This document shows, piece after piece, positions 3,386 to 47,456 of a DNA stretch of 64,000 bases. Origin of the DNA: a virus (Duplodnaviria; Heunggongvirae; Uroviricota; Caudoviricetes). The stretch is taken from the IMG/VR virus record IMGVR_UViG_3300042482_001246; one strand, 5' to 3'. The translations under genes and the position numbers were made by a program. A model generated the notes under the pieces. That model worked only from the letters and a program-made list of their open reading frames with translations, was not told the origin of the DNA and did no database searches. The stretch's first letter is position 1. Each line of letters starts with the position of its first letter.

Positions 3386-3424
3386 AATCTTCTATTTAAG
3401 TTTTACAAATATAAATGTTTTTTA

Positions 3425-4093: not shown

Positions 4094-4132
4094 AGGACAA
4101 AGGTAAAATAAAATATAGATTAAATCAAAAAA

Positions 4133-4927: not shown

Positions 4928-5261
4928 AATATTTTTATCTATAAATATACAATTACAAAGTATTTATCATATATCTTTGATTCATTATGGCCGACAGGAA
5001 TTTTTATATGAGAAGAGTATTGACCAAAATTGTAAAAAATATGGTTAGTAAAAATCCTGCATTCAAAAATATTCGTTCAGTTGAAATACAATTCTTACTT
5101 AAATCTCCTGTTAGAAGCGCAATGTGTGATTGGGTTTATGGTCTTACTATCAAGACATATAACGATGATGTTAACCAACCTCAAATAATTTCTCAAATAA
5201 AAGAAAGAATTGATTCTGTTACATCACAACTAACAAAAGACACTTTCTGTCTCACCGACTA

Positions 5262-8764: not shown

Positions 8765-8802
8765 ACGTTCAAAACATAGTTATTTAAAGTGTTGTTGTAA
8801 AG

Positions 8803-8845
8803 TTCATATAAAAGAAAAGGTCCTCTTTCGAGGACCAATTCACCA
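8803..8845 (-). terminator. rho-independent terminator
   Basis: Minus-sense ggtcctcgaaagaggacc hairpin followed by ttttctttt. Confidence 0.6.
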
Positions 8846-8851
8846 ACCATC

Positions 8852-9592: not shown

Positions 9593-9651
9593 ATTGGTTG
9601 GTTTTAAATTCAATACAAAGATAAGGAAAGTTTTGGTTCCCACAACACAAT

Positions 9652-9692
9652 TCAAAAAAAAATCCCCTCTTTTTTTAGAGGGGATTGTCACT
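9652..9692 (-). terminator. rho-independent terminator
   Basis: Minus-sense aatcccctct-aaaaaaa-gaggggatt followed by a run of T. Confidence 0.65.
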
Positions 9693-9693
9693 C

Positions 9694-10158
9694 TTAGTTT
9701 TGAGTGAAGGCTTGGTCTGCCCAAGTCTTAGCTCCGAAGAATTCCCAAATCTTCATATCACACATATCGGGGAAAGACTCTCTCATTGTACCTACAGTCA
9801 ACACGTCCAAGAATCCTTTGTCGATACTGTTCCACTTGTTTCCTTTGGTGGTCAATACGTTCATCCAGTTACCGTATTCGTCCTTCACTTGAACGTTAAC
9901 AAGTGTGTTCTTCTTGTATCCACTGATAACTCGCTTGGGAGTTCCTTTGGTGTCGTGGATACTGATGAACCCTGCTCGACACTTACCAGCGATACGGAAC
10001 TCATACTCTTTGTTCTCGTCTTTAAGGTGGTTAGAAACCGATACAGTGTGACGTTTGCTCTTTACAATGGTTTCGAAACTTCCGTAGAATACGTCTCCTG
10101 CCATTACGCCTTCAGTAACTTTGATGATAGATTTTGGGGTGGTGGTTGTGGTTGTCAT
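9694..10158 (-). CDS. hypothetical protein (N-terminus MTTTTTT)
   Basis: 154 aa ORF with a terminator downstream and a TTTG-N19-TATCTTTG promoter-like element upstream. Confidence 0.6.
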   Translation of the reverse strand: MTTTTTTPKSIIKVTEGVMAGDVFYGSFETIVKSKRHTVSVSNHLKDENKEYEFRIAGKCRAGFISIHDTKGTPKRVISGYKKNTLVNVQVKDEYGNWMNVLTTKGNKWNSIDKGFLDVLTVGTMRESFPDMCDMKIWEFFGAKTWADQAFTQN

Positions 10159-10177
10159 ATGTGTGTGTATTTGTTTT

Positions 10178-10216
10178 TAACACTACAAAGATAGTGATAT
10201 TATCCAAACTGCCAAA
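10178..10216 (-). promoter_or_regulatory. Bacteroidota-type sigmaA promoter-like element (TTTG N19 TAnnTTTG)
   Basis: Minus-sense TTTGgcagtttggataatatcacTATCTTTG, about 25 nt upstream of the ATG at 10158. Confidence 0.4.
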
Positions 10217-10223
10217 ACTTTTT

Positions 10224-10529
10224 TTAAGAATTTCTACAACTTCCGTCACAACCTTGTCCGGCACCTTCGTAGTAGTTGGTCCTGAAGTCAACGTGGGTTC
10301 CTGTTGGTACGTTTGTTTTTCTACCACATTGGATACAAACTTCAAACCCATCGATACTGTTACCTAAACTTGTAACCATACCGTTCTCGTCTATCTGTAA
10401 CGTAACGTGTTCATCTCGGTTAGATTTCATTAACTCAATCTCATTCCAATATTTTTGACGAACATATTCACCGAGAGAATAATCGTTTGGGTGGGAGAGT
10501 ATTTCTTTTGATGTGATTTTTATTTCCAT
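10224..10529 (-). CDS. small hypothetical protein with C-terminal CxxC...C zinc-ribbon-like motif
   Basis: I trimmed the track ORF to the internal Met MEIKIT. The upstream 40 codons are AT-rich junk-like sequence. Confidence 0.5.
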   Translation of the reverse strand: MEIKITSKEILSHPNDYSLGEYVRQKYWNEIELMKSNRDEHVTLQIDENGMVTSLGNSIDGFEVCIQCGRKTNVPTGTHVDFRTNYYEGAGQGCDGSCRNS

Positions 10530-10617
10530 AGTTTTTTTTGTAAAAATAGTTTTAAGTTGTTTGTATGTAAACAAGATACCAGTCTTGTGGTATTTATTAA
10601 ATATCTTGAGGTAAAAT

Positions 10618-11142
10618 ATGAAATTAGATGACGTTTTAAGAATTTTCAAACATTCAGGTGGTTACCCAAACCCAAAAGCAACAGATATTTTGGATTTTAT
10701 GAATCTGAACAAAATCAAGTTCGCCCAAATGGTTGCAGATAGATTTGGTGAATCAGGGGCCGATAAGTTCTTCGACACCTCAGTAAAACGTTTATCTCAA
10801 AAAGATGGTGTATTTAAAATTTACCCATATGCTCAATGGGGACAGGATAACCCAAGTTATCTTGATTTGGATTTTAGTAATTCAAATACGGTTTTAGAAG
10901 AAGTTGGTAACCCTTACATTGGTATTTTGATTGAAGATTGGCAATTAAAAGATTCTTTAGTCGAGTTTATGGATGATGAAGGTAATACTCAAACATATAC
11001 ATTAGACGAACTTTTTGAAGTGATATCTGATGAAGAACCTTACCAACTTGATGATGCAATAGAAGATTGGATGTCTGTCATACAAAGGTCAATTTCAAAT
11101 TACTTAGGAGTTCCGGTAGTTTTAGGAAATAGGAAAAAATAA
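10618..11142 (+). CDS. hypothetical protein (plus strand, divergent from the neighbouring genes)
   Basis: 174 aa ORF followed immediately by a plus-sense terminator. Confidence 0.6.
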   Translation: MKLDDVLRIFKHSGGYPNPKATDILDFMNLNKIKFAQMVADRFGESGADKFFDTSVKRLSQKDGVFKIYPYAQWGQDNPSYLDLDFSNSNTVLEEVGNPYIGILIEDWQLKDSLVEFMDDEGNTQTYTLDELFEVISDEEPYQLDDAIEDWMSVIQRSISNYLGVPVVLGNRKK

Positions 11143-11146
11143 AAAA

Positions 11147-11174
11147 GGTCAGATGATATCTGACCTTTTCTTTT
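11147..11174 (+). terminator. rho-independent terminator
   Basis: ggtcagat-gat-atctgacc hairpin followed by ttttctttt. Confidence 0.7.
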
Positions 11175-11223
11175 GGGACTGACAGGATTTGTCAATCGAC
11201 TCCACCACCTGGACTACCAGGAT

Positions 11224-11517
11224 TTACTTGGTAACCAAAGCTTCCACTTTGGATTTCATATGTTCTGACAATGATACCTCACCAACCGTGGGTGTAATCA
11301 ATGAAGTCAAAACAATTGAATCAACCAAATATTTGTACGGAATGTGAACCAAGAAGTCGGTACCATTGAAGAAATCCAAATCTCCTTTGAGTTCCAAACA
11401 ACCGTGAACCATTTTCAAAAACAACTTAAACTGAATACCGTCAACAAAGGTTTCATTCAAGAGGGTCCCGAACTTCTCGTTCTCAATCCTAATATTGTAT
11501 GTAAAATTGATTTTCAT
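11224..11517 (-). CDS. small hypothetical protein
   Basis: Trimmed to begin after the terminator hairpin at 11558-11579. About 97 aa, no motif recognised. Confidence 0.3.
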   Translation of the reverse strand: MKINFTYNIRIENEKFGTLLNETFVDGIQFKLFLKMVHGCLELKGDLDFFNGTDFLVHIPYKYLVDSIVLTSLITPTVGEVSLSEHMKSKVEALVTK

Positions 11518-11550
11518 ACCACAAATATAGAAATAACTTTTCATATAAAC

Positions 11551-11579
11551 AAAAAAACCCGAAGATTTTTTTCTTCGGG
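11551..11579 (-). terminator. rho-independent terminator closing the tRNA/ncRNA transcription unit
   Basis: cccgaaga-ttttttt-cttcggg hairpin. The minus sense is followed by ttttttt. Confidence 0.6.
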
Positions 11580-11590
11580 TTCTGGCACTT

Positions 11591-12470
11591 AGGTTGAGAA
11601 TACACCTTCGATTAAGAATCTTTAGGGACATTATTGTTTCTTCCCGTTTCCACTACCTTTTGAGTAGTAATTCTTAGTGACGGTTCCTTAGGGGTACCAT
11701 TCCTTGAGTCGTGCGGTTACTCTCTTTGTACTTGTTACTCTCCGAGGTTGCCACCCCAGTGAATCCTTGCGGGATTAGAGAACTTTCTCAAGAATCATTT
11801 GGGTCTTGGGAACCCATAATGGCAATGAACATCTCATTACTATGTAGTCACCTTTCGCCTACGACTGACAGACACTTTTCCTTCGTCTTTTAGTATTTGC
11901 ATACTTCAAAATGCAAAGTTGTTGGTCTGTGGATGGTGAAAGTAGCGGTCTGCCAACCAGACAAGCCATCTTTTGAACGACTCGATACTGAACTACTCTC
12001 TGAGATATCCCTACCTCGATACTTCAAGAAATCTTCATAATTAAAATCTTGGTAGATTCTAACTAAGGTTACCAACAGCACCACCTGTACGATAACATGA
12101 CTTTCGTCTTTAAGACACCTCTGATATTGAATCCCGTGATTGTAAAGTTGGATGACTTTACTTCTCACAACAATTCTACGAGTTATTCTTATTGTTCTTC
12201 CGAACTCAACTCAACGACCCACATCGCTGAGTCATCATTCCATTTTGTCTACAGTGTCACCCTCGACTACTCAGGAACAATGATATCCCGCTTGCCTACT
12301 CGAGCTCTAAGAACCGAAGTTCAAAGAACCGCAGTCTCCGTTAACCTTCGGAGACCACTTTATCCCACTTTCGTGGTTTATTTATTGACCATAGGCGGCC
12401 AATTATCTTATTTACTAACCTGTTGGTTAGAAGGATAATCAAATATGTAAAAGAACGTGTTTCGTTAATT
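11591..12470 (-). ncRNA. candidate large structured non-coding RNA (GOLLD/ROOL-like class) downstream of the tRNA
   Basis: About 880 nt with no credible ORF in any frame. GC is visibly elevated over the roughly 33% GC background. Many local stem-loops (for example gtctccg-aaggttaa-cggagac). Bounded by a TTG-N20-TAACTTTG promoter-like element and a terminator. Confidence 0.3.
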
Positions 12471-12530
12471 GTTTCACAAAGTTAAGAAGATTATTTTAAT
12501 CTGTCAAGCACTTTGTAAAAGTTTTTTTTG

Positions 12531-12604
12531 TTGCGGGAGTCGGACTCGAACCGACGGCCTCAAGGTTATGAGCCTTGCGAGCTACCAACTGCTACCACCC
12601 CGCG
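12531..12604 (-). tRNA. initiator tRNA-fMet (anticodon CAU)
   Basis: Minus-sense CGCGGGGTGGTAGCAGTTGGTAGCTCGCAAGGCTCATAACCTTGAGGCCGTCGGTTCGAGTCCGACTCCCGCAA. Features: cloverleaf, TTCGAGT T-loop, CTCATAA anticodon loop, C1:A72 mismatch, and near-identity in layout to E. coli tRNA-fMet. CCA is not encoded. Confidence 0.85.
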
Positions 12605-18892: not shown

Positions 18893-20056
18893 TTAATCGT
18901 TATAAATTGAACCACTTTTATTTTCAGACTCTTCGAATTGATGTTGTTCCATAATATCTTTAAGTGGTGATTTTTGAGTATCAACTTTAGTATTCATATT
19001 ATGAATAATCTTATCAAGAGTTAATGCAAAGTCCAGAGTTTCGGATATGATACCAACAATTTTATATGGGTCACCATTTGATGCCGGTCTACGGTCTTCA
19101 ACATAACCCTTCCATTCTTTTGATGTAGACAATGGAACTCTGATTGATGCACCTCGGTCAGCAACCCCCCAACTAAACTTGTCAATAGATTGGGTTTCGT
19201 GTTTACCAGTCAAACGAAGATTGTTATCAGAACCGTAATTGTTAATGTGTAACTGATGACGTGAATCAAAGGCGTTAAAGATGTTTTTGAAGTATTCATC
19301 ACCACCTTCATTTCTCATCTTGTCATTTGAGAAGTTACAGTGTAATCCTGAACCATTCCAATCACCCATCACAGGTTTAGGGTGGAATTCAATCTTAAAA
19401 CCATAGTCCTCAGACATTTGTTGTAAAATGTATCTCGACATCCACAAATCATCACCGGCCTTTAATTTACCTTTGGAGAATACCTGGTACTCCCACTGAC
19501 CCAATAAGACCTCGGCGTTTGTACCTGTAATTTCAATACCTGCCAAGATACAATTTTCCATATGAGTATCCACAAATTTTCTACCGTTAACTTGTCCGTT
19601 ACCTACACCACAATAGTATTTTCCTTGTGGTTCAGGATATCCATTCTCAGGGAAACCCAAAGGTCTACCATCTTTCATAATGGTATACTCTTGTTCAAAA
19701 CCAAACCAAAGGTCCTCTTCTTCTTCCCCAACAAGACTTCTTGTATTTGATACGTGTGGAGTCCCATCGGGATTCATAACCTCACACAACACCAAGAAAG
19801 ACCATAGACCACCTTCGTTAAGTGAGTTGTGATAAACTCTAACAGGTTTCAAAATACAATCAGAAAAATGTCCGTCAGCTTGTTGTGTTGATGAACCATC
19901 AAAACTCCACTCAGGGCAATCCTTCAGTGTTATAATATCCCCATATGGAATATTCTGAAGACCAGTCTCTTCTTTTTCAATCACCTTAACCTTACTTCTA
20001 AGATTAGGTTCTGGCTGATACCCATCCAACCACACATATTCTAATTTAACTTTCAT
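18893..20056 (-). CDS. glnII: glutamine synthetase, type II (eukaryote-like GS)
   Basis: N-terminus EYVWLDGYQPEPNLRSK, GKYYCGVGNG...GTNAEVLLGQWEYQV and GFEQEYT are colinear with GSII enzymes. Confidence 0.8.
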   Translation of the reverse strand: MKVKLEYVWLDGYQPEPNLRSKVKVIEKEETGLQNIPYGDIITLKDCPEWSFDGSSTQQADGHFSDCILKPVRVYHNSLNEGGLWSFLVLCEVMNPDGTPHVSNTRSLVGEEEEDLWFGFEQEYTIMKDGRPLGFPENGYPEPQGKYYCGVGNGQVNGRKFVDTHMENCILAGIEITGTNAEVLLGQWEYQVFSKGKLKAGDDLWMSRYILQQMSEDYGFKIEFHPKPVMGDWNGSGLHCNFSNDKMRNEGGDEYFKNIFNAFDSRHQLHINNYGSDNNLRLTGKHETQSIDKFSWGVADRGASIRVPLSTSKEWKGYVEDRRPASNGDPYKIVGIISETLDFALTLDKIIHNMNTKVDTQKSPLKDIMEQHQFEESENKSGSIYND

Positions 20057-23723: not shown

Positions 23724-23749
23724 GTTGTAATATGTTAGTAAAATTAAAA

Positions 23750-23774
23750 GGGTGAAGAAATTCACCCTTTTTTT
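23750..23774 (+). terminator. rho-independent terminator (bidirectional-looking)
   Basis: gggtgaa-gaaa-ttcaccc followed by ttttttt, with an A-run on the other side. Confidence 0.65.
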
Positions 23775-23784: not shown

Positions 23785-24807
23785 GTGATGACAGGGAAAT
23801 TACAAAGATTAATCGACGATGTTAATAATGGTAAATTTGATATTATCAAAGATTTTTTTGGTGATATGGAAACTTTTTTGGACTATCTTGGTAAAAAAGG
23901 TTTGATACACGAATTAGACCTTATTAACAACGAAGAAGAATTCGAATATGAAGTTAACAAAATAGCCCTCGCAATTAAAGAACATAATCCCGAAAAATTT
24001 AGAGAATATGTTTTATCTTCATTAAGTGATGTTACTTATGAAAATGGTGAATACTATGTGACTTTGAATGATAAAAGTAGACTCGCGTATCTTTTTTGTG
24101 ATGATAGAAGAAATGGTATGTCTCAATCAACAATATCAGAGATACTAGATGGTGAATGGGATTTTGATTTTTGGGATACTACCGATAATGTTTATAGGGA
24201 TGTTATTCAAGAACTAAATAAGGATAATCTTACTTATTTATCAAAAAAAATAAGTAACGAATTATCTGACGTTAAGGTAGAACCTGAAACAGAATTGTTA
24301 GAAGAAATTGCCGAGGAACAAGGTCATCCTGAATATGTAACCTTAACCCCCGAGTTGATTCACGACAGAATATTCAATGATGAGGATTCAACAGAAAGTA
24401 TTTTGAATGAAACCGAAAACATTAAATCAGATTTACACTCATTACATAACAGAGCATATGCAAATGCTTATGAAGATGAGGTGTATAGTGGTATAATGGA
24501 TGAACTTGAAACATTTTTTGATATGCGCCATTCTGATTGGATAACAGTTCCAAGTAGTGTAAACCCAAACAAATCTTATACCTATTTCAAAGTTAAAATA
24601 AATAATTTTGATTCAGAGATTTCCGATTACCTTAATAACGCGAAGAATCATAATGAACCATTAAGTAATTATGGTGACTATCTTAGTATTTTGAGTGAAA
24701 ATATTAGTTATGGTAGTGCCAATTGTTTGGTATATTACACGCCTGATTATGCGGATTGGCCAAAAACAAAAGAAAATATTAACGAACTTTTTGGTGACTA
24801 TTTTTAA
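23785..24807 (+). CDS. hypothetical acidic protein (plus-strand island)
   Basis: 340 aa. Confidence 0.55.
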
Positions 24808-27800
24808 ATAATCCCCTTTAGTTTAGCTTTATCCAAAACTTTTTTAGCTCTCTCTTCAAGAGATGTTATTCTAACCTCTTGTTCTTTTAACGCTTCAATG
24901 TTAACGGCAATCATTTCTTTATAATTCATTGTTAACACTTTACCTTCAGTATAAATAACTTCAGGAACATAAGGCAAAACTTCTTGAGCAATAAATCCAA
25001 TAGCTTTTTTGTCATTAGAACTATATTCTTTACCTCTCCATTTAAATGTGACACCTCTAATACTTAATATCTTATTTAGAGCATCACCGATAGGTTTAAC
25101 ATCTTTTTTCAGTCTTTCATCTGAAGGACCTGTTGGTCCTTGTGGACCTTGAGCTCCTTGTGCTCCGAATGTTGAACTAGCACCTCCTTGAGCCCCTGGT
25201 GCTCCTTGTGCCCCTGTTGGACCTGGTGTTGCAGAACCTTGAGCACCTGTTGGTCCTTTAAGACCTGTAGGTCCTTGTGCACCGACGGCTCCCTCAAAAC
25301 CTTGTGAACCTTGAGCTCCTTGAGCCCCTGTTGCACCTTGTGCACCTTGTGGTCCATTAGGAGACGTTGGCCCTTGAGCCCCTTGAGCTCCTTGAGCTCC
25401 AATAGCACCTGAATTTCCTTGAGCGCCTTGAGCACCTTGAGCGCCGGCTGTACCTGAACCTTGAGCACCTTGAGGTCCTGTTGGTCCTGTTGCACCTTGA
25501 GGTCCTGTTGGTCCTGTTGCACCTTGAGCACCTTGAAATCCTTGACCCCCTGTAGGTCCTACGGCTCCTTGTGAACCTTGAGCCCCTTGAGGTCCTGTTG
25601 GTCCTGTTGCACCTTGAGCTCCTTGAGCTCCAACAGGTCCTTGAGCACCTGTGGCTCCTTGGAATCCCTGCTGACCATTAGGTCCTATTCCACCTACGTC
25701 CCCTTGAGCACCTTGCGCTCCTTGGAATCCTTGTCCTCCTGTTGCTCCTTGAGACCCTTGAGCACCTGTTCCTCCTTGAGCTCCCTGAAAACCTTGTCCT
25801 CCTTGCGCCCCTTGTGGACCTTGAGCTCCTGTGGCACCTTGAGCACCTTGAGCTCCCTGCCCACCTTGCGCTCCTTGTGGACCTATTGCTCCTTGGAAAC
25901 CTTGTGCTCCTTGAAAACCTTGTCCTCCTTGAGCCCCTTGAGTTCCTGTTGCTCCTTGAGCACCTTGAGCCCCTTGTGCTCCCTGTCCTCCTGTTGCGCC
26001 TTGAGCTCCTTGTGCTCCTTGTCCTCCTGTTGCTCCTTGGACTCCTTGTCCACCTGTTGCTCCTTGCGCACCTTGGTTACCAACAGCACCTTGAGCTCCT
26101 TGGAAACCTTGAGCCCCCTGACCTCCTTGTGCACCTTGTACTCCAACAGCACCTTGAGCCCCTTGTGCTCCTTGGAAACCTTGTCCTCCTTGAGCACCTT
26201 GAGTACCTGATATACCTACAGAACCTTGAGAACCTTGAGCCCCTTGTCCTCCTTGAGCACCTTGAGTTCCTGATACACCTTGAGCTCCTTGAGCCCCTTG
26301 GAAACCTTGACCTCCTTGAGCACCTTGAGTTCCTGTTGTACCTTGAGCCCCTTGAGCTCCTTGAAAACCTTGTCCTCCTTGAGCTCCTTGGGTTCCTGTT
26401 GCTCCTTGAGCTCCTTGAGCTCCTTGAGCTCCTTGGAAACCTTGAGCACCTTGGGTTCCTGTTGCACCTTGAGCCCCTTGAGCTCCTTGGAAACCTTGAC
26501 CTCCTTGAGCCCCTTGGGTTCCTGTCGCTCCTTGTGCACCTTGAGCTCCTTGTGCTCCCTGTCCACCCTGAGCACCCTGAGTTGCTGTCGCTCCTTGCGC
26601 TCCTTGAGCTCCTTGAGCTCCTTGACCACCTTGAGCACCTTGGTTACCAACTGCCCCTTGTGAACCTTGAGCCCCTTGTGCTCCTTGTCCACCTTGGGCT
26701 CCCTGATTACCTTTAGCCCCTTGAGCTCCTTGCGCCCCTTGGGCTCCTTGACCACCTTGAGCACCTTGGTTACCAACTGCCCCTTGTGAACCTTGAGCCC
26801 CTTGCGCTCCTTGTCCACCTTGCGCTCCTTGTCCACCTTGAGCACCTTGAGCCCCTTGTGCTCCTTGAGCACCTTGTCCTCCTTGAGCACCTTGTGTTCC
26901 CGTTGCACCTTGAGCACCTTGAGCTCCTTGGAAACCTTGTCCACCTTGAGCACCCTGTGTTCCTGTTGCTCCTTGAGCCCCTTGTGCTCCTTGGGCTCCT
27001 TGTCCACCTTGAGCACCCTGTGTTCCTGTTGCACCTTGAGCACCTTGTGCTCCTTGGGCTCCTTGTCCACCTTGGGCACCTTGGTTACCCTTTCCACCTT
27101 GAGCACCTTGTGCTCCTTGGGCTCCTTGTCCACCTTGAGCACCCTGTGTTCCTGTTGCACCTTGAGCACCTTGTGCTCCTTGGGCTCCTTGTCCACCTTG
27201 GGCACCTTGGTTACCCTTTCCACCTTGAGCACCTTGTGCTCCTTGGGCCCCTTGTCCACCTTGAGCACCCTGATTACCTGTCGCACCCTGAGCCCCTTGA
27301 GCTCCTTGAGCTCCCTGTCCACCTTGTGCACCTTGGTTACCAACCGCTCCTTGTGAACCTTGAGCTCCTTGAGCTCCTTGTCCTCCTTGGGCGCCTTGGT
27401 TACCAACCGCTCCTTGTGAACCTTGAGCTCCTTGAGCACCTTGTCCACCTTGAGCACCTTGATTACCTTTTCCACCTTGAGCGCCTTGAGCTCCTTGAGC
27501 TCCTTGTCCTCCTTGGGCACCTTGGTTACCAACCGCTCCTTGTGAACCTTGAGCTCCTTGAGCTCCTTGTCCACCTTGAGCGCCTTGATTACCTTTTCCA
27601 CCTTGGGCGCCTTGAGCACCTTGAGCACCTTGTCCTCCTTGAGCCCCTTGGTTACCTGTTGCCCCTTGAGCTCCTTGTGCGCCTTGTGAACCTTGCCCTC
27701 CTGTTGCTCCTTGGGAACCTTGAGCTCCTTGGGCTCCTTGACTACCAACCGCTCCTTGAGCACCTTGGTTACCAGTATTACCCTGAGCACCTTGTCCTCC

Positions 27801-28088
27801 TTGGGCACCTTGATTACCTTGAGCGCCTTGTGGTCCAGCATTTACATTACCTTTCCATCCGGTAGAGTCTATTATTAATCCGTAATTGTTTGTAACTGTA
27901 TTAGCACTTAAATTTGTATTTTGTACTTGGAATATAGGTGCTGTCTTGGCAATTTTTAGATATGTTGTTGTTTGATTTACAACATAATTCAATGTAGAAC
28001 TAGAATATACCAAATCACTTCGAGTATTCCCCGAATCATAAAATTGTATTGTTATACTTGCAGGTACTATTATTATATTCTCAGCCAC
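24804..28088 (-). CDS. collagen-like fibre protein 1 with C-terminal S74 intramolecular-chaperone domain
   Basis: About 900 residues of Gly-X-Gln triplets (GAQ/GNQ/GGQ/GSQ/GTQ). C-terminus [10 protein letters not shown]...GFIAQEV matches the endosialidase/tail-fibre chaperone autocleavage region. Confidence 0.85.
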
Positions 28089-31000
28089 GTAATTTTTCTT
28101 CTAATTCAGTTAATGATGTTTTAAGGACATCCATTCTTTTTTGATTTTCTTTTACAAAAGATACTCCAAGAGTAACAAGTAGTTCATACTGTAAAGATTT
28201 ATAACCAAACTTATCTTCCCAAACAATTTCAGGAAAATATTTTTCAACTTGTTGGGCGATAAAACCTATACTTCGTTTTTTAAGTAAATACTTTTCATTG
28301 TCTTTATACAATGAAAGTTGTGGTATATTTTCAACCCAATCAAAAGATACACCATTCATATTAACAACATCAATAGCTCTATCAAATTTCTTGATGTTTT
28401 CTTTCAATCTTCTATCTGAAGGTGGCCCTTGAGGTCCTTGAGCACCTTGTGCTCCTTGTGGTCCCGTTTTACCAGCATTACCTTGAGCACCTTGAGCACC
28501 TTGTGGTCCTGTAACACTAGCACCTTGAGCTCCTTGAGAACCAGTACCTCCTGCAGGTCCTGTTGCACCTTGAGCTCCTTGGACTCCTTGTGGACCTGTC
28601 CCACCTGTAACAGCTCCTTGAGCGCCTTGTGCTCCTTGTGCCCCTGCAGCTCCTTTTCCTCCTTGAGCACCTTGTGCTCCTGTGGAACCCTGAGTTCCGG
28701 CCTTTCCTGTTGCACCTGTAGCACCTTTTGGTCCCGATGGTCCTTGAGCTCCTGTTGGTCCTTGAGGTCCTCTTGACCCTTGTACACCTTGTCCTCCTGT
28801 CTGACCTGCAGCACCTTGAGCCCCCTGTGTCGCACCCGCAGGTCCTTTTGTTCCTCCCGCACCTTGAGCACCTGTAGGACCTGGACCTCCTGTAGGACCT
28901 GTCGCTCCTTGAGACCCTTGAGAACCTTGAGCTCCAGCGGGTCCTTGAGCACCTTGTGTAACACTCGGATTCCCTTGTGGTCCTTGTGAACCTGTTGCTC
29001 CTGTGGCACCCTGAGCTCCTTGGGTACCTCCTTGAGCACCTGTGGCTCCTTGTGGGCCTTGAGGTCCTTTTGCTCCTTGAGCTCCTTGAGGACCTCCTTG
29101 AGCCCCTATCGGACCTTGGGCTCCTTGAGCTCCTGTAGCACCTGTTGCACCTTGAGTACCTCCTGTAGCACCTTGGAATCCCTGAGGTCCTGTAGCACCT
29201 GTAGCACCCTGAGCCCCTTGAGGTCCTCCTTGTGCACCAACAGGTCCTTGAGCACCTGTAGCACCTGTAGCACCTGGAGCCCCTTGCGGAGTACCTTGTG
29301 GTCCTTGAGCACCTTGAGCTCCTGTTGGTCCTGTAGAGCCTGTTGCTCCTTGGACCGCTCCTTGAGCACCTTGATTACCAACAGCACCTGTTTGTCCAGT
29401 CGCACCTTGTGCCCCTTGAGCACCTTGAGGTCCTCCTGGATTTCCCTGAGCACCTTGGGCTCCTTGTCCACCTTGAGCACCCTGTGCACCTGTTGGTCCT
29501 CCCTGTGCACCTGTTGGTCCTTGAGCACCTTGGGCTCCTTGAGCACCTTGTCCTCCTTGTACACCTCCTTGAGAACCTGTTGGTCCTTGAGCTCCTGTCG
29601 CACCTGTGGCACCTGTCGCTCCTTGCGTTCCTCCTTGAGCACCTGTTGGTCCTTGAGCCCCTGTTGCACCTGTGGCTCCTGTAGCCCCTTGAGGTCCTCC
29701 TTGTGCACCAACAGGTCCTTGAGCTCCTGTAGCTCCTGTGGCTCCCGTCGCACCCTGAACTCCACCTTGAGCACCTGTTGGTCCTTGAGCTCCTGTAGCT
29801 CCTGTGGCCCCTGTTGCACCCTGAACTCCACCTTGAGCACCTGTAGGTCCTTGTGCACCTGTTGTTCCATTAGCACCCGTTGCCCCCTGAACTCCACCTT
29901 GAGCACCTGTTGGCCCTTGTGCACCTGTTGTTCCATTAGCACCTTGAGCCCCTTGAGGTCCTCCTTGTGCACCTGTTGGTCCTTGGGCACCTGTTGTACC
30001 TTGAGCACCTTGAGCTCCTTGAGAAGCTCCTTGTGCTCCTTGTGAACCAACGGCTCCTTGAGCACCTTGTGCTCCCTGATTTCCCTGAACTCCACCTTGT
30101 GCTCCTGTAGGTCCTTGGGCACCTGTTGTACCTTGAGCACCTTGAGCCCCTTGAGAAGCCCCTTGAGCTCCTTGTGAACCAACGGCTCCTTGTGCACCCT
30201 GTGCTCCCTGATTTCCCTGAACTCCACCTTGTGCTCCTGTAGGTCCTTGTGCACCTGTTGTACCAGCGGCACCTGTTGCCCCCTGAACTCCACCTTGAGC
30301 ACCTGTAGGTCCTTGTGCTCCTGTGGCACCTGTCGCACCTGTTGCCCCTTGGACACCTCCTTGAGCTCCCGTACTACCTTGAGCTCCTTGAGCACCTGTC
30401 GTACCCTGAGCACCCTGAGAAGCACCTTGTGCACCTTGTGAACCAACGGCTCCTTGAGCACCTTGTGCTCCCTGATTTCCTTGGACACCACCTTGAGCTC
30501 CCGTAGGTCCTTGGGCACCTGTCGTACCTTGAGCACCTTGAGCACCTTGTGATGCACCTTGAGCTCCTTGTGAACCAACGGCTCCTTGAGCACCTTGTGC
30601 TCCCTGATTTCCTTGGACACCACCTTGAGCACCTGTTGTCCCTTGAGCACCTTGAGCTCCTGTCGCCCCTGTCGCTCCTTGCGTTCCTCCTTGAGCGCCC
30701 GTACTACCTTGGGCACCTTGGGCACCTGTGGCTCCTGTCGCTCCTTGTGTTCCTCCTTGAGCACCTGTACTACCTTGAGCACCTTGTGCCCCTGTCGTAC
30801 CTTGAGCACCTTGTGAACCTCCTTGAGCACCTTGTGAACCAACGGCTCCCTGAGCACCTTGGGCTCCTTGTCCTCCTTGTGTCCCACCTTGAGCACCTGT
30901 ACTACCTTGAGCACCTTGAGCACCTGTCGTACCTTGAGCACCTTGTGAACCTCCTTGAGCTCCTTGTGAACCAACGGCTCCTTGAGCACCTTGTGCTCCC

Positions 31001-34000
31001 TGATTTCCTTGGACACCACCTTGAGCACCTGCAATACCTTGAGCACCTTGTGCCCCTGTTGTTCCTTGCGCCCCTTGAGACGCTCCTTGAGCACCTTGTG
31101 CTCCTACTGCTCCTTGAGCACCAGTACTACCTTGTGCTCCTTGAGCTCCTGTACTACCACCCCCACCTTGAGCTCCCGTTGTTCCTTGTGCCCCAACATT
31201 TCCTTGAGCTCCTTGAGCACCTTTAATAGTTGTTTGTGGTCCAATCCATACACCGGCATTATTAATCATATTTTGACCACCAACCCATAAACCTGATGGT
31301 GAACTTGATATTGTAACACCTGTAGTTGTTATGTCATTATTACTGAAAACTACTAATGATGGACTTGTTGTTGCAGAAAATTTGACATCACCCGGTGCAA
31401 CCATATTAATTTGGATACTATCCGCAGCAGACGCCCCCTCGTATACTATATGAGGCGATGAGTTTCCTGTAGTTCCACTTGGATATATTATTACGTCTGC
31501 CATATATTAATTTCTTTCAACCTTTTCTTCTAAATTTGTTAATAGAGAATCCAAGTCATCAATAAATACTTGTTGCTCTTTTATGGCTTCTACTAAATAA
31601 GCGTTAAGTGAGGTATAGTTTAAACTATAATAACCGCCACCCCTTAATTCAATTATATCTGGTATTACACTTCTAACTTCTTGTGCAATAAAACCAAACG
31701 AGTGTAGTTTACCATCTCGTTTCATTGCCTCATAGTTGGGGTCTAATTCGTTCCAATCAAATTCAACAGGATTTAATTGTAAAACACTTTCTAACGAGTT
31801 TTCAATAGTAGTAATTTCTTGTTTTAAACTAATATCTGAAGGACAAGTATTAGGAACACCAATAATTAAACAACCTCCTGTGTCTAGGTCGTAATAAAGT
31901 GATGATAAGTCATACCATACGGGAGCAGGTAAAGGAGTTACACAACTAAGATTTGCACAGTCAGTCGCATTTTCAAACACAGATGTGTTGTTAGTCCAAG
32001 TAGTAATATCGTCTGGCGAGTATATGTCCCCATAAAATCCGCGGTTTAATGAACAAGCACTACCCGGGTCACCCGCATAATAACCTGAATATTGAAAACA
32101 AGATGCTGATGGTGGTCCTGCCGGTCCTGGCGCTCCAGGAGCACCCTGAGCACCTTGTGGTCCCGTATCACCTTGAGCTCCCGTAGCACCTGTTAGTCCG
32201 TCGGCACCTGCAGGTCCTGGTGCTCCTTGAGCACCTTGTGTTAACCCTTGTGCACCTTGTGGTCCTTGAGCGCCTTGTGCACCTTGTGGTCCTTTTGCAC
32301 CTGTAGGTCCTGGTGCTCCTTGTGCACCTAATGGACCGGCACCTCTAAGTTCCCCTATTCCCCCTTGAGCCCCCTGAGCACCTGATGGTACAATTGGTGT
32401 AGGTCCTTGAGCACCTTGTGCACCTTGTCCTCCACCTGCTCCTTGAGCTCCTTGGAATCCAAGAGGTCCTTGAGCACCTTGAGTAGCACCTGTTGGTCCT
32501 TGAGCCCCTGTAGCACCTTGTGGTCCAGGAAGTCCAGCAATTCCTTGTGTTCCAACATTTCCTTGAGCACCTGTAGGTCCGGGAGAACCTTGAGCACCTG
32601 TTGCACCGATATTTCCAATAGGACCAGGACCTGTTCCTTGAGCTCCTTGTGGTCCTTGAACACCAGGAAATCCTGTGTTTCCTTGTGCACCTGTGGCACC
32701 TGTTGCACCTGTTGGTCCAACATCTCCTTGTGAACCTTGAAATCCAAAAGTACCGGTACCACCACCAGCACCTGTATTTCCAACATCACCTTGTGCACCT
32801 GAAAAACCTGTGGCACCTTGAGCTCCTTGAGAACCTGTAGGCCCAACCGGACCTGTTGCTCCACCCGCTCCTTGAGAACCTTGAGCTCCTGTAGCACCAG
32901 TATTTCCAACATTACCTTGTGAACCTTGAGCTCCTTGAGCCCCTTGTGGTCCTCCTCCTCCCACAGGACCCGCAAAACCTGGAAATCCTGTAGAACCTTG
33001 AGAACCTTGAGCTCCTTGAGCCCCTTGTGGTCCAACGGCCCCTTGAGAACCCTGAGCTCCTTGAGCTCCTTGAGCACCTATTGTACCTGAATTACCTGTT
33101 GGCCCAAAGACTCCTACCGTTCCTTGAGCTCCTTGTGCTCCTTGTGGTCCTCCTGAACCTTGTGGACCTCGAGCCCCTTGTGAACCCTGAGCACCTTGTG
33201 CTCCTTGTGCACCCACATTACCTGTAGGTCCAACGGCTCCTTGTGAACCCTGAGCACCTTGTGCTCCTTGTGCACCTTGGTTACCTGTAGGTCCAACGGC
33301 TCCTTGTGAACCCTGAGCTCCTTGGGCTCCTTGCGCACCTTGGTTACCTGTAGGTCCAACGGCTCCTTGTGAACCTTGAGCTCCTTGTGCTCCTTGTGGT
33401 CCTCCTGAACCTTGCGGTCCAACGGCTCCTTGTGAACCTTGTGCTCCTTGTGCTCCTTGTGGTCCTCCTGAACCTTGCGGTCCAACGGCTCCTTGTGAAC
33501 CCTGAGCACCTTGTGCTCCTTGTGCACCCACATTACCTGTAGGTCCAACGGCTCCTTGTGAACCCTGAGCACCTTGTGCTCCTTGTGCACCTTGGTTACC
33601 TGTAGGTCCAACGGCTCCTTGTGAACCTGTATTACCTTGAGCTCCTTGGTTACCGGTATTTCCTTGGGCTCCTGTATGTCCTGTTGAACCTTGTGCTCCT
33701 TGAGCTCCTGTTGCACCTCCATTACCTGTTGGTCCAACCGCTCCTTGGAAACCTGTGTTACCTTGTGCTCCTTGATTACCTGTGTTTCCTTGTGCACCTG
33801 TATGTCCTGTTGAGCCCTGAGCACCTTGTGCACCTGTTGCCCCACCATTACCTGTAGGCCCTACATTACCTTGTGAACCTTGAGCCCCTTGTGCCCCTTG
33901 AGCCCCTTGAGCCCCTTGTGGTCCTACATTACCTTGTGAACCTTGTGCTCCTTGTGCTCCTTGTGGTCCTGTTGAACCTGTTGGTCCGACATTACCCTGA

Positions 34001-34800
34001 GCTCCCTGATTACCTTGAGCACCTGTTGGCCCCACGTTTCCTTGTGCACCTGTGTGTCCTGTTGAACCCTGAGCACCTTGTGCTCCTGTAGCTCCCGCAT
34101 TACCTGTTGGTCCTACGTTACCCTGAGAACCTTGATTTCCTTGTGCACCTGTATTACCAGTATTACCTTGAGCACCTGTATGTCCTGTTGAACCCTGAGC
34201 GCCTTGTGCTCCTGTCGCACCTCCGTTACCTGTTGGTCCGACATTACCCTGAGCGCCCTGATTACCTTGTGAACCTTGTGACCCTGTTGCACCTGTTGGT
34301 CCGACATTACCTTGTGCTCCCTGATTACCTTGTGAACCTTGTGACCCTGTCGCTCCTGTTGGTCCGACATTACCCTGAGCACCTTGATTACCTTGAGAAC
34401 CTTGAGCTCCCACATTACCTTGTGCACCAGGATGTCCTGTTGAACCCTGAGCTCCTTGAGCACCTGTCGCACCTCCGTTACCTGTTGGTCCGACATTACC
34501 CTGAGCACCTTGATTACCTTGAGAACCTTGAGCTCCCACATTACCTTGTGCGCCAGGATGTCCTGTTGAACCCTGAGCTCCTTGTGCACCTGTCGCTCCT
34601 CCGTTACCTGTTGGTCCGACATTACCCTGAGCGCCCTGATTACCCTGAGCACCTGTTGGTCCCACGTTTCCTTGTGCACCAGGATGTCCTTGAGAACCTT
34701 GAGCATTTGCTGAACCTTGAGCTCCTTGATTACCCTTTCCACCTTGTGAACCTTGTGAACCCTGAGCACCCGTATTTCCAATGGCTCCTTGAGCTCCTTG
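25090..34800 (-). repeat. extensive near-perfect triplet/multi-triplet tandem repeats inside the three collagen-like genes
   Basis: Recurrent units such as ggtgctccttgagcaccttg repeat dozens of times. They generate long spurious ORFs in five other frames. Confidence 0.9.
28081..31503 (-). CDS. collagen-like fibre protein 2 with C-terminal S74 chaperone domain
   Basis: GxQ triplets with GGVQG/GASQG interruptions. C-terminus [11 protein letters not shown]...GFIAQQV. Confidence 0.85.
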
Positions 34801-35085
34801 ATTACCTTGGAATCCTGTTATATTTGTTCCAGGTCCTAACCAAGCACCTGTACCATTTAATACTTGAATTCCTCCAATAGTTAGATTATTAATGATATTA
34901 ATATCATCATACGCTTGGATACCACCCGATGACATTAATAATGTAGAACCCCACTTTATAGAAGTACCAGCACCATAAGGTCTGACCTCTAACCTCAAAG
35001 TTCCCGTATTTTCAAAATCAATATAGGGAATCCTTCCGGGATTCGGGACTAAATTACCAGGTACAATTGTTATATTTTTTGCCAT
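31507..35085 (-). CDS. collagen-like fibre protein 3 with Cys-rich knob and C-terminal S74 chaperone domain
   Basis: G-N-Q/G-A-Q triplets with GPTG/GPQG, then a Cys-rich segment, then [11 protein letters not shown]...GFIAQEV. Confidence 0.85.
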
Positions 35086-35146: not shown

Positions 35147-35428
35147 TTAAATAATATGTTTTTTGATTATATCAACAGCTTCAGTTAATTCATTATAGTC
35201 CCTATCAGGAGTATACATATGAGGAATGGTTTTTTCTTTAGTTTCTTCAATAATGAGTAATGCTGGTACAAAATCATTTTCTGTTAATTGTGAAAAGATA
35301 TCATACTCTTCTTCATACTCATCAATGTCTCTATCAACGAAGTCAATGTTCTCTTTGACTAACATCTCTTTGAAGTCAGTACAATGAGGACAGCCTTTCA
35401 TTGTATAAACAATAATTGTTTTACTCAT
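35147..35428 (-). CDS. glutaredoxin/NrdH-like redoxin
   Basis: N-terminal CPHC active site in a roughly 90 aa thioredoxin-fold protein. Confidence 0.7.
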   Translation of the reverse strand: MSKTIIVYTMKGCPHCTDFKEMLVKENIDFVDRDIDEYEEEYDIFSQLTENDFVPALLIIEETKEKTIPHMYTPDRDYNELTEAVDIIKKHII

Positions 35429-35736
35429 TAGTTCATTAGTATTTCAGTTAATTCAGGTGTCGGCACAACTCCTGTTCTTGTCATATCAACTACACCATTT
35501 TTGAAGAGTTTTAAAGTCGGTACCGCTCTGATTCCCATCTCTGTTCTTACGAAGTCGTGGTCTGTGTCAATATCGTATTTGTATACAGGTATTTTTGTTT
35601 CATTCTCAGATGTGATTTTCTCAAGTGATGATAACAATACTTTACAAGGCCCACACCAAGTTGCGTATAAATCTAAGAGGAAACTTTCCTTGTTATTTAT
35701 TTTTTCTTTCAATTGTTCTGTCGTTAACTGTTCCAT
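35428..35736 (-). CDS. thioredoxin
   Basis: WCGPCK active site with thioredoxin-fold spacing. Confidence 0.8.
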   Translation of the reverse strand: MEQLTTEQLKEKINNKESFLLDLYATWCGPCKVLLSSLEKITSENETKIPVYKYDIDTDHDFVRTEMGIRAVPTLKLFKNGVVDMTRTGVVPTPELTEILMN

Positions 35737-39211: not shown

Positions 39212-39349
39212 ATGGCTTGTCAAGATTGTAAAAAAGGTTCACCAATAAGATTAACTAAAAATCAGTGGTTGTCATTGATTGCCGGAGCATATATGGTTAG
39301 TGCTACGATATACACCACTTATGTTATTTTTCGTTGGCTTCTAAAGTAG
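39212..39349 (+). CDS. tiny CxxC plus TM protein
   Basis: 45 aa, MACQDCKKG... followed by a hydrophobic helix. Convergent with and overlapping the dnaJ-like 3' end. Low confidence. Confidence 0.25.
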   Translation: MACQDCKKGSPIRLTKNQWLSLIAGAYMVSATIYTTYVIFRWLLK

Positions 39350-40259
39350 CCTTATCGAACTTAACACTTAATTTAACATACATATACGCCCCGTTGAATC
39401 CTTTACCTTTTAATCTCAACGGTACGTTACTATCAAACACTTTAGGTGCGGCAACTTTCAATTCACCATCGGGATGTGGGATAGTATAATAATCCTCAGT
39501 TAAATCTTTATAATCCAATACGAGATTATAAATCAAATCATCCCCCATTTTTTGAAATCCTTCTGATTCAACAATTTCTATTTTTAAGATTAAATCTCCA
39601 TACATACCTTGTTGGAAGTCACCCTTTTGGTCCATCTTGAAGAACTGACCTTCATCAACCCCTTTAGGTAAGTTTACACTTATACTTTCAAATTTCTTTG
39701 TTGTACCAACACCAGAACAATTACTACAGAATCTGGCTAAATTATACCCTTTACCCTGACATTGTGGACAAGCACTTCTAACTTGTTGTTGGAAGAATCC
39801 TGAACCAAGGATTTGAGTGATAGCACCTGTGCCACCACATCCATTACAACCAACTCTATCACCACCAGAACCTGAACAACTATTACAAGCAACATCTCTT
39901 TGGTAACTTAAGTTTTTAGTAACCCCCTTATAAGATTCTAAAACACTGACATCAACCTTTAAAACTTTATCAGGAACTTTTCTATGTCTTGGATTACCTC
40001 TCCCCCCATTTTGAAACATCTCTCTAAAAAAGTCCTCAAATTGAGAACCTGCAAAGGGATTGTTTTGTGAGTTAAGATATGATTCTTTTTTAGACGGATT
40101 TGATAATATATCATACGCCTCGGCGATTTCTTTAAACTTTTCAGCACCTTCAGGGTTTACATCTGGGTGATATTGTTTACTTAATTTCCTATACGCTTTT
40201 TTGATTTCATCGTCAGACGCGTTTTCAGAAACACCTAAAATTTCGAAATAATTTTTCAT
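39324..40259 (-). CDS. dnaJ: DnaJ-like co-chaperone (J domain plus Cys-rich zinc-finger)
   Basis: NYFEILGV...YRKLSKQYHPDVNP carries the HPD motif. Four CxxCxGxG-type repeats follow (CNSCSGSGG, CNGCGGTG, CPQCQGKG, CSNCSGVG). Confidence 0.85.
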   Translation of the reverse strand: MKNYFEILGVSENASDDEIKKAYRKLSKQYHPDVNPEGAEKFKEIAEAYDILSNPSKKESYLNSQNNPFAGSQFEDFFREMFQNGGRGNPRHRKVPDKVLKVDVSVLESYKGVTKNLSYQRDVACNSCSGSGGDRVGCNGCGGTGAITQILGSGFFQQQVRSACPQCQGKGYNLARFCSNCSGVGTTKKFESISVNLPKGVDEGQFFKMDQKGDFQQGMYGDLILKIEIVESEGFQKMGDDLIYNLVLDYKDLTEDYYTIPHPDGELKVAAPKVFDSNVPLRLKGKGFNGAYMYVKLSVKFDKATLEANEK

Positions 40260-41836: not shown

Positions 41837-42010
41837 TTAGTCTTTTTTACTCTCATCCAAAATCTCTACGCGAAGTTGTTGTAACAAAGCTTTCAATTCT
41901 TGACAAGTCTTTCTAGCTCTTGTACCGGCACTTTTATTACCTTTGTAGAACTTCTCCGTGTCAAACGATAGAGTTTCGGTTAAATCTTTAATTTGCTTCA
42001 AAGTTTCCAT
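41837..42010 (-). CDS. Hc1-like (histone H1-like) small DNA-binding protein
   Basis: 57 aa ORF below the track cutoff: METLKQIKDLTETLSFDTEKFYKGNKSAGTRARKTCQELKALLQQLRVEILDESKKD. The KGNKSAGTRARK...ELK core resembles the chlamydial/Bacteroidota Hc1 N-domain (KGNKAAAQRVR...KLEK). Confidence 0.45.
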   Translation of the reverse strand: METLKQIKDLTETLSFDTEKFYKGNKSAGTRARKTCQELKALLQQLRVEILDESKKD

Positions 42011-46302: not shown

Positions 46303-46867
46303 CTTGTGTTGTTTGTTTTCTTGAAGCTAAAACCCTCGACCACTTAACTTTAAATTTATCGTAAAAACTTTTTAACTTATTAATTGTTTCTAAAGTCTCA
46401 TCATCAACTTTCAACATATTCCCGTTGATGTAAGTACCACTACTTTCACCAATAGTATAAATAAAATCAATATCTTTATCGATAATTTTACCTGACCATT
46501 CAACAGTAGTTGGGTATAGGTTTAATTGATTAAAATCTGAAAGGTCTGAAACCTCTTCAGAGAAGTCATCCATAGTCTCTTGGAAAGCAACTTTATCGTC
46601 AGTTGTAATGTCTGTATCAGATTTTTCTTTTCCGTGAATGGCTAGTATCCCACCTGATATTCTATATTTTTGGACATACTCATCGTCAGCCTCTTTTTCT
46701 TTACCATTCTCAGCAGTATCGTATTCATCCTGTTCGATTTCATCTTCGATACTCTTACCAATATTCATTGGTCCAAGTTTTTCGGCGTTTAATTGTTCCA
46801 TCACCAATCTTGATGTCTTTAACAAGTCTTTAATTTCGTCGTACCTATTGTTCGCTAAGTTGTTCAT
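46292..46867 (-). CDS. hypothetical acidic protein
   Basis: 191 aa. Confidence 0.5.
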   Translation of the reverse strand: MNNLANNRYDEIKDLLKTSRLVMEQLNAEKLGPMNIGKSIEDEIEQDEYDTAENGKEKEADDEYVQKYRISGGILAIHGKEKSDTDITTDDKVAFQETMDDFSEEVSDLSDFNQLNLYPTTVEWSGKIIDKDIDFIYTIGESSGTYINGNMLKVDDETLETINKLKSFYDKFKVKWSRVLASRKQTTQDEE

Positions 46868-47456
46868 CTTCTATTTGTTTTTTGAATGATGTGAAAGGAA
46901 ATGCAGGACTTAAATCTGTAAATCTTTGGTCATAATTACTTCTTGAAACTATTCCCTTGAAGTTTTCGATGCCATCGAATTTTGTATTATGCCCTACGAA
47001 TTTATTTGGTATTGAAAATTTCTCACACAACATTTTACAAAGTTCAACAGATTTCTCGATTTGAACATCCGTGTATGGTTGCCAAAAGAAATAGTCTCTC
47101 CACTTCTTTTCATATACATTATCTTTATAAATATTACCAATCCAATTCAAGTAGTGTTCAGAAAGAGGTTTTTTATTTAACCATCCATAGTTTTCAAAAC
47201 AAACAATTATATGATTTTTTTTAATCCTATCATTAATTAAAAAATCACTAGTGTAATTCGGTGATAATATCTCTAATACTCTACCTTCTCGAGTTATTAG
47301 ATAGTGAGGTAACTTAGTATAGTTACCCCCCATTCTAAACTTAAGGGAGGTCAAGTATTCACTTGCCTCCCTTGATGTATGACAGAGCACAATCTGTCTT
47401 TTTTCTTTAAGTTTTTTTTGTGTCTTAAATTTACCGTAAACGATTACTTCATCCAT
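46845..47456 (-). CDS. N-acetylmuramoyl-L-alanine amidase (amidase_2/PGRP, T7-lysozyme-like)
   Basis: IVLCHTSREAS ... HYLITREGRVLEI parallels T7 lysozyme AIFVHCSAT ... YHFIIKRDGTVE. Confidence 0.6.
   Translation of the reverse strand: MDEVIVYGKFKTQKKLKEKRQIVLCHTSREASEYLTSLKFRMGGNYTKLPHYLITREGRVLEILSPNYTSDFLINDRIKKNHIIVCFENYGWLNKKPLSEHYLNWIGNIYKDNVYEKKWRDYFFWQPYTDVQIEKSVELCKMLCEKFSIPNKFVGHNTKFDGIENFKGIVSRSNYDQRFTDLSPAFPFTSFKKQIEDEQLSEQ

Follow-up and report, generated by a model that had tools for sequence, protein, structure and literature searches.

Three tandem collagen-like genes with matched, co-varying rod lengths in a family of uncultured freshwater jumbo phages

Why should a phage keep three giant collagen-like genes side by side, and what relates their products to one another? 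The question is raised by a 64,000-nt stretch of DNA from a tailed virus (Caudoviricetes; IMG/VR record IMGVR_UViG_3300042482_001246; the whole stretch is called the window below), in which three open reading frames (ORFs) on the minus strand encode such proteins. They are named here in the order of transcription as gene C (31507..35085, 1192 aa), gene B (28081..31503, 1140 aa) and gene A (24804..28088, 1094 aa, with a GTG start). On the basis of ORF calling and Pfam analysis each was found to consist of an N-terminal domain, a collagen-like rod and a C-terminal S74 domain, with a Cys-rich knob between rod and S74 in C. The array spans 10.3 kb, which is 16% of the window. A preliminary description of this DNA, made from the sequence alone, had given coordinates and protein lengths (1094, 1140 and 1192 aa) that match the ORF list exactly, and its size for the array (~10.3 kb, one sixth of the window) is equally borne out. 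It overlooked the most interesting property of the locus, namely that the lengths of the three rods are matched within a phage and co-vary between phages. The explanation regarded here as reasonably probable is that A, B and C form three distinct homotrimeric collagen-like virion fibres of equal length, most likely tail-associated fibres for contact with the host.

Matched lengths of three old paralogues

The three genes are tightly packed. The start of A (28088) and the stop codon of B (28081-28083) overlap over 8 nt, and the stop codon of C (31507-31509) is followed 3 nt later by the start of B (31503), confirming the abutting or overlapping starts and stops claimed earlier at 28081-28088 and 31503-31507. 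It is plausible that the genes form one operon, given these junctions and a gene order which is conserved in every relative; a scan for promoters and terminators gave nothing usable within the array. The GTG start of A is backed by orthologues beginning MAENIIITP, and the N-terminal motif said to be common to the three proteins was recovered, MAKNITIVP being among the N-termini read. The 1192-aa protein had been presented as a third copy with a Cys-rich knob; the knob is present, but its gene is the first transcribed rather than the third.

Related arrays were fetched from IMG/VR by alignment of B-type N-termini, and 18 arrays were used for the length statistics (loci and proteins are designated by L- and P-numbers). 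All relatives possess the three genes, co-oriented and in an unchanged order. The number of Gly-X-Y triplets per rod was found to range from 95 to 304 between phages, with close agreement within each of the following arrays (order C/B/A): 296/298/297 in the window, 303/296/304 (L155), 301/284/300 (L157), 225/249/239 (L175), 174/164/176 (L166), 166/156/163 (L172), 161/155/160 (L072), 152/148/142 (L152), 144/140/141 (L170), 118/105/117 (L167) and 97/95/96 (L156). The L040 array has 195 triplets in C and in B, its third gene being cut off at the locus end, and the L169 array (3780-12589) has 216/221/219. Lengths of the paralogues are correlated with r = 0.987-0.998, the coefficient of variation is 2.5% within an array versus 37% between arrays, and none of 100,000 column permutations reached the observed length match. 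The total rod spans of A and C often agree within 0-3 residues (902/905, 918/917, 354/353, 295/295, 504/504 and 1107/1109), while the identity of their non-Gly residues is only 36-49%. Paralogues which share little but their glycines thus hold an equal number of triplets, and that number varies threefold between related phages. With a triple-helix rise of 0.29 nm per residue (PMC8968730), each rod of the window (~297 triplets) is estimated at ~255-260 nm, and the family at ~83 nm (95 triplets) to ~260 nm (300 triplets), or ~320 nm for the 1107-residue spans of L175.

The common length is retained in some lineages and altered in others. One clade keeps 292-301 triplets despite a 32% divergence of the conserved 444-aa protein encoded near the array, and in a second clade, with 80-89% identity of this neighbour, all three genes have shifted together to 171, 142 and 113 triplets. 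Differences of whole repeat units were observed between arrays with an identical 444-aa neighbour: gene B differs by one 22-aa unit between L157 and L158 (1160 vs 1138 aa), and gene C differs by 42 aa, or two 21-aa units, between the window and L003. These may be either repeat-number polymorphism or assembly collapse. Unit insertions and deletions between near-identical strains would mean that the mutational supply of length variants is high, and yet the triad remains matched. Taken together, this suggests that a common fibre length is under selection and is retuned between lineages. The family would offer a natural experiment on how the length of a host-contact fibre is determined, the candidates including the reach needed to pass a capsule or surface layer, a match to a dimension of the particle, and co-assembly.

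The paralogues themselves are old. Proteins of the same type from different phages share 50% identity in S74 and 43% in the N-terminal domain, whereas different types share 29% and 25%, and these last values are the same whether the two proteins come from one phage or from two. As identity within a phage equals that of unrelated pairs, the sequences of the end domains mark A, B and C as ancient paralogues that constitute old orthologous groups. That the equal lengths stem from recent duplication or gene conversion was largely rejected, in view of these old end domains and of the low identity of the rods.

A related alternative is that concerted evolution, through recombination or gene conversion between rods, has kept the lengths matched as a side effect, with no selection on length. 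Triplet usage is slightly more similar within a phage (r = 0.83) than between orthologues (r = 0.76), and shared 9-mers behave in the same way (means of 9% within a phage, 7% for orthologues and 4% for unrelated pairs). All three rods of L175 share one peculiar Lys-rich pattern of breaks. The N- and C-terminal types have been shuffled between the three genes of L169, which implies that recombination within rods does occur and that end modules are interchangeable. Nevertheless, the DNA identity of the paralogue rods in the window (63-67%) is the baseline for GGN-GCN-CAA repeats, the longest exact run that they share is 27-34 nt, and only 2-25% of 9-mers are common to the paralogue rods of one phage. 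Type-specific periods (22 aa in B, 21 aa in A and C) persist throughout the family, and the near-identical A and C spans go with the low non-Gly identity given above. Concerted evolution is therefore considered very unlikely as the sole explanation.

Modules of the three proteins

The collagen-like nature of the rods is well supported, with Pfam Collagen (PF01391) found above gathering cut-offs in all three proteins (E 1e-72 to 1e-112; 1.4e-112 in C), as the preliminary description had anticipated. The rod of C (32110..34815, residues 91-992) has 296 triplets with 6 short breaks and a 63-bp (21-aa) periodicity, that of B (28420-31221) has 298 triplets in blocks of 7 with a 22-aa or 66-bp period, and that of A (25125-27836) has 297 triplets with a period of 126/189 bp, in multiples of 21 aa. 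The longest unbroken Gly-X-Y run is 230 triplets. Gly-X-Y accounts for 81, 78 and 74% of the residues in A, B and C, and Gly-X-Gln for 78, 50 and 51% of the triplets, that is 63, 39 and 38% of the residues; a previous figure of ~85% Gly-X-Gln was too high. The X position is 43-59% Ala and 7-16% Pro and the Y position is 50-78% Gln and 11-28% Thr, Val also being common there, and 45% of the triplets in A are GAQ. Pro makes up 2.6% (A), 4.7% (B) and 6.5% (C) of the residues. The low Pro content noted before is thus real, but "almost no Pro" does not describe the 1192-aa protein, in which about one-fifth of the triplets contain it.

Two features of rod design recur in the family. Firstly, tandem repeat analysis (Tandem Repeats Finder) gave periods of 63, 126 and 189 bp for A and C, 21 aa corresponding to 7 triplets, whereas B has one additional residue per 7 triplets in the form G-[GA]-x-Q-G, with 36 such breaks in the window protein. 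B-type orthologues show the same segmentation with 10-39 breaks, in most phages in B only. B is longer in span than A and C, by about one residue for each of its breaks, but still agrees with them in triplet count; fibre B is probably more flexible. Secondly, in A, B and C types alike the Pro fraction climbs along the rod from 4.6% in its first decile to 14.9% in its last, and this rise towards S74 fits a C-terminal nucleation zone and zipping of the helix from the C- to the N-terminus. The divergent relative L175 (5829-19931) has rods which are all Lys/Pro-rich, with an ~80-residue super-period, 26-29 breaks and spans of 1107/1106/1109 residues, and an additional stretch of ~2.2 kb between its first and second genes.

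The repeats also affect base composition and annotation. The G+C content rises to ~52% over the array, which is due to Gly, Ala and Gln codons and hence to amino-acid composition only. Horizontal acquisition of a GC-rich block was ruled out, as G+C at third codon positions is 0.14-0.15, below that of neighbouring genes, and synonymous codons are AT-biased like those in the rest of the window. Long ORFs in alternative frames (26216-27841, 29106-31094, 33114-33848 and others) are artefacts of the GGN-GCN-CAA repeats. Public gene calls often break the array genes into wrong-frame pieces or retain only a 157-aa C-terminal fragment (L003, L005; P0028). Collagen fibre genes of this type are probably under-annotated and likely to be under-counted in viromes.

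Each rod is followed by Peptidase_S74 (PF13884), which was detected over the full profile at E 1e-11 to 1e-15 (57.9, 45.2 and 48.8 bits against a cut-off of 22). It occupies 31510..31839 in C (residues 1083-1192; Pfam E 8.4e-13), 28084-28419 in B and 24807-25124 in A. The C-terminal motifs on which this domain had been proposed are all present, namely SDERLK (A), SDRRLK (B) and SDISLK (C) followed by GFIAQEV, GFIAQQV and GFIAQEV. A search of PDB sequences with the S74 profile gave the tip of the S16 long tail fibre (6f45, E 9e-11) and the ICA domain of MyRF (7dc3), the fold matches in BFVD are S74-bearing tail fibres, and proteins annotated as tail fibres in cyanophages, Vibrio phages and Thermus phages were hit by the S74 region in tblastn. 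The S74 assignment of the preliminary description is therefore upheld at the level of both family and fold. Among 29 aligned sequences the S, D, L and K of SDxxLK and the G, A and Q of GFIAQ are invariant, so that a Ser is always followed five residues on by a Lys.

This Ser-Lys pair corresponds to the catalytic dyad of known S74 chaperones, S911/K916 in endoNF and S587/K592 in MyRF, the latter being cut between P586 and S587 only when trimeric (PMC8326128). The C-terminal coiled coil of an S74 chaperone drives trimerisation (PMC8326128). By analogy with MyRF and endoNF, the S74 domains of A, B and C would likewise trimerise their chains, and cleavage is predicted N-terminal to the Ser, at GP/SDERLK in A (S989, K994), PP/SDRRLK in B (S1029, K1034) and CP/SDISLK in C (between P1082 and S1083, with Lys1088). 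Chaperones of 106, 112 and 110 residues would be freed from A, B and C. S74 with its C-terminal helix adjoins the rod directly in A and B, where the rod runs straight into the cleavage serine (GPTGP/SD in A and GPQGPP/SD in B), and adjoins the knob in C. Cleavage at the predicted sites would therefore leave A and B ending in bare triple helix and C ending in the knob.

The knob of C (31840..32109, residues 993-1082) comprises 90 aa with 6 Cys and was modelled by AlphaFold2 (AF2) with a predicted local distance difference test (pLDDT) score of 80-93. No structural match apart from the S74 part was found for it in PDB and BFVD; Pfam gave no C1q domain, and neither structure collection held a matching gC1q/TNF-like head. 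Its orthologues have 77-93 aa and 6 or 8 Cys, and with 21% identity between C-type orthologues, where S74 has 51% and the N-terminal domain 41%, the knob is the fastest-evolving part. The L172 array is devoid of it. As it is both confidently folded and the least conserved part, the knob is likely to be the distal tip of fibre C after the predicted cleavage and a receptor-binding element. Thioredoxin and glutaredoxin genes (35147-35736, minus strand) lie directly upstream of gene C, as they do in every relative checked (L155, L156, L166, L170 and L175), even the most divergent of them. Their position beside the gene of a Cys-rich knob may reflect chance synteny or a redox link.

The opposite end of each protein is formed by an N-terminal domain of ~85-95 aa (34816..35085 in C, residues 1-90; 31222-31503 in B; 27837-28088 in A), presumed to attach the fibre to the virion. 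The three share one profile, in which I7, P9, W82 and G84 are invariant or nearly so across A, B and C. The profile gave 104 hits among 1.84 billion representative proteins, mostly fragments at the ends of metagenomic contigs. AF2 predicted beta strands in a weak model (pLDDT 70, predicted template modelling score 0.35). In some metagenomic proteins of 1,000-3,150 aa the profile matches 5-9 internal stretches (P0162, P0171, P0173, P0174 and P0211), and the domain may be derived from a beta-rich repeat of a fibre shaft. P0171 also bears a Phage_tail_fib N-terminal domain (PF12571), the sole remote link to tail-fibre anchors.

Equal triplet numbers would also be expected if the three chains formed one A-B-C heterotrimer like C1q, with S74 serving as the module for chain selection and registration; equality would then be structurally required. 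The counts are indeed equal in the window and co-vary across phages, it is the triplet number and not the total span which is matched (B being longer by about its one-residue breaks), and the number of genes is three throughout, all co-oriented and overlapping. The rods of L175 have the same break pattern and nearly the same spans despite their old, divergent end domains. On the other hand, in most phages only B carries its 10-39 regular insertions, which would put a bulge after every 7 triplets of a mixed helix, and the ~90-aa knob, found only in C, would leave the three S74 domains out of register at the end of the rod. As a rule the breaks of A do not fall at the same positions as those of C; in-register breaks, the signature of a heterotrimer, are sporadic (two in L155 and one in the window). 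The loss of the knob in L172 and the re-assortment in L169 suggest interchangeable, self-sufficient modules. Moreover, MyRF and the S74-bearing endoNF, phi29 gp12 and T5 pb1 are all described as homotrimers. A heterotrimer is accordingly regarded as improbable. A slightly wider proposal, still rather doubtful, is that the triad is physically coupled, as an A-B-C heterotrimer with co-evolved S74 chaperones or as a co-linear bundle of three homotrimers, in which case the structure itself would demand equal numbers of triplets, and every lineage would readjust its three genes together. If true, it would to our knowledge be the first heterotrimeric (or obligately co-assembled) viral collagen, and a natural and genetically simple system for the study of collagen chain selection and length control.

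Assembly, location and genomic setting

For three homotrimeric fibres, the following course of assembly is proposed. The S74 domains would trimerise via their terminal helices, and the S74 trimer would set the register of the chains and nucleate the triple helix in the adjacent, Pro-richest end of the rod. The helix would then zip from the C- to the N-terminus, and the assembled S74 trimer would cleave itself at Pro/Ser by means of its Ser-Lys dyad. The diverged N-terminal domains, of ~90 aa, would anchor three fibre types to the particle. Fibre C would bind a receptor through its knob, and all three fibres would have to reach the same distance. Selection would hold the three rods at equal length within each phage, with the common length reset per lineage.

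Several observations weigh against this proposal. The higher similarity of triplet usage within phages and the break pattern common to the L175 rods suggest, at sequence level, some exchange or coupling between rods, and two arrays are off by 10-15% in length (L168 with 149/170/152 and L046 with 126/152 triplets). A Pro-poor, hydroxyproline-free helix may be only marginally stable. The N-terminal domain gave no match among PDB sequences and has no named homologue or resemblance to a known fibre anchor. It is odd that A and B, if receptor-binding fibres, should have no globular tip after the predicted cleavage. The neighbouring genes look non-structural (thioredoxin, glutaredoxin, methylase, DnaJ), and when ~30 neighbouring proteins were scanned against PHROGs and Pfam, none fell into a family of capsid, portal, sheath or baseplate proteins. 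The only hint of a structural context is a weak similarity of the 444-aa neighbour (E 2e-7) to a virion protein of PA5oct known from mass spectrometry.

Some of these points would suit fibres or whiskers on the capsid, giving a "hairy" particle, with a role in stabilisation, dispersal or loose adhesion. Collagen-like capsid binders are known, for example SPP1 gp12 (PMC7602432), the genes lie outside any recognisable tail module, and A and B would have no tip domain after cleavage. The BclA nap provides a precedent for collagen-like hairs that are longer or shorter according to their number of repeats (PMC10470788). However, among the S74 phage proteins recovered in the sequence and fold searches the great majority bear annotations as tail fibres, tailspikes or neck appendages, and the hypervariable knob of C resembles a receptor-binding tip. 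A location on the head is thus thought unlikely, and tail-associated fibres remain the preferred reading.

The window lies in a 92,972-bp contig from a freshwater metagenome of the Joint Genome Institute (JGI; sample 3300002835), and the same proteins were found on contigs from many further samples. The 444-aa neighbour retrieved 62 IMG/VR loci at 42-64% identity on contigs of up to 326 kb, which confirms the viral origin assumed beforehand. The source is a family of uncultured freshwater jumbo phages. Among 50,697 phage genomes, no match was found by megablast with 20 kb around the array or by tblastn with the 722-aa and 579-aa neighbours, and a scan of genome contigs with the 444-aa neighbour, made in search of prophages and hosts, found no bacterial relative.

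The conserved gene order is DnaJ, a Dam-type methylase, the 444-aa protein, small ORFs, thioredoxin, glutaredoxin, C, B, A, a convergent 340-aa gene and a 583-aa acidic protein. The adjacent 340-aa gene as query gave 3 loci only. Between the 583-aa and 340-aa genes, which are divergent, lies a perfect hairpin with an 11-bp stem (23746-23771), flanked by A/T runs and terminator-like on both strands. A glutamine-synthetase-like gene (18893-20056, minus strand; Pfam Gln-synt_C and Gln-synt_N) has a 71%-identical orthologue beside the L175 array, and a link to the supply of Gln for the fibres (14-22% Gln) is conceivable. At 5262-8764 (minus strand) genes were found for UDP-galactopyranose mutase and then two family-2 glycosyltransferases, one with TPR repeats. 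The rods of BclA are glycosylated, and by their predicted functions these enzymes are candidates for glycosylating the Thr-rich rods. Other genes in the window encode a full-length DnaJ with J domain, Zn-finger and C-terminal domains (39324-40259), a 57-aa Hc1-like histone-like protein (~41837-42010), an Amidase_2 protein which is probably an endolysin (46845-47456), an SbcC-like nuclease subunit (49850-52222) and a DnaG-like primase (56440-57354). There is one tRNA-Met gene (12530-12604).

Comparison with known fibres and collagens

The combination of a collagen shaft with a C-terminal S74 chaperone has already been described in the fibres of polinton-like viruses (PMC12220804), and collagen-like shafts have been noted in the fibres of phages and contractile injection systems (PMC4621102, PMC12923769). 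The two-domain logic is shared with the polinton-like fibres; what differs here is the fixed triad of ancient paralogues, the private N-terminal domain, the matched lengths and the type-specific rods. An alignment search with S74 retrieved at least 600 stretches, mostly from unrelated fibres, and served as a background sample from IMG/VR, in which 12 of 104 S74 ORFs outside the family had 10 or more triplets. An unrelated 41.7-kb contig (L120; IMGVR_UViG_3300025880_000030, 3-10309) carries two genes with collagen and S74, ~0.9 kb apart and with 353 and 386 triplets, so multi-gene giant collagen fibres are not unique to this phage family.

The S74 domains resemble those of endoNF (3gw6), phi29 gp12 (3gud), the L-shaped fibre pb1 of T5 (4uw8), S16 gp37 (6f45) and MyRF (7dc3) in fold and in C-terminal position, and also in the Pro-preceded SDxxxK Ser-Lys site and the terminal helix. 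Those chaperones fold triple beta-helices or beta-fibres, whereas the client here is a collagen triple helix.

C1q offers a parallel in gene number. Its three tandem genes, in the order A, C, B, give a heterotrimeric collagen stalk, the chains being chosen by the gC1q heads. Three adjacent paralogous collagen genes, collagen regions of equal length and one chain with an insertion are features common to C1q and the phage array. C1q differs in its proven heterotrimers; the phage proteins have S74 modules, and most of the evidence favours homotrimers.

As regards bacterial proteins, the rods have in common with BclA of the Bacillus anthracis exosporium nap an N-terminal anchor, a hydroxyproline-free collagen-like rod and a C-terminal trimerising domain. 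The length of BclA filaments is determined by a polymorphic number of repeats, as related at second hand in PMC10470788 (citing Sylvestre 2003). BclA differs in that it retains its C-terminal domain, which is C1q-like, and is a single gene, GPT-rich and far shorter, with neither S74 nor multi-gene length matching. Collagens of the Scl1/2 type also have no hydroxyproline, and bacterial collagen-like proteins average ~19% Pro at X and ~32% Thr at Y (PMC8968730). Polar Thr and Gln are thought to stabilise such a helix through hydration (PMC8968730), and the phage rods fall in the same Thr/Gln "hydration" class, but at proportions which depart from these averages, with the lower Pro at X and the predominance of Ala at X and Gln at Y given above. 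Ala/Gln-rich, hydroxyproline-free rods of ~900 residues with a removable folding nucleus may be of interest for recombinant collagen design.

In the literature searched, no description was found of three old paralogues conserved as a triad whose rods are matched and co-vary in length, of the segmentation by 7 triplets plus one residue, or of this N-terminal domain. The parts of the phage fibres are therefore ordinary, collagen and S74 both being known from other systems, and it is the length-matching rule which appears to be the new element.

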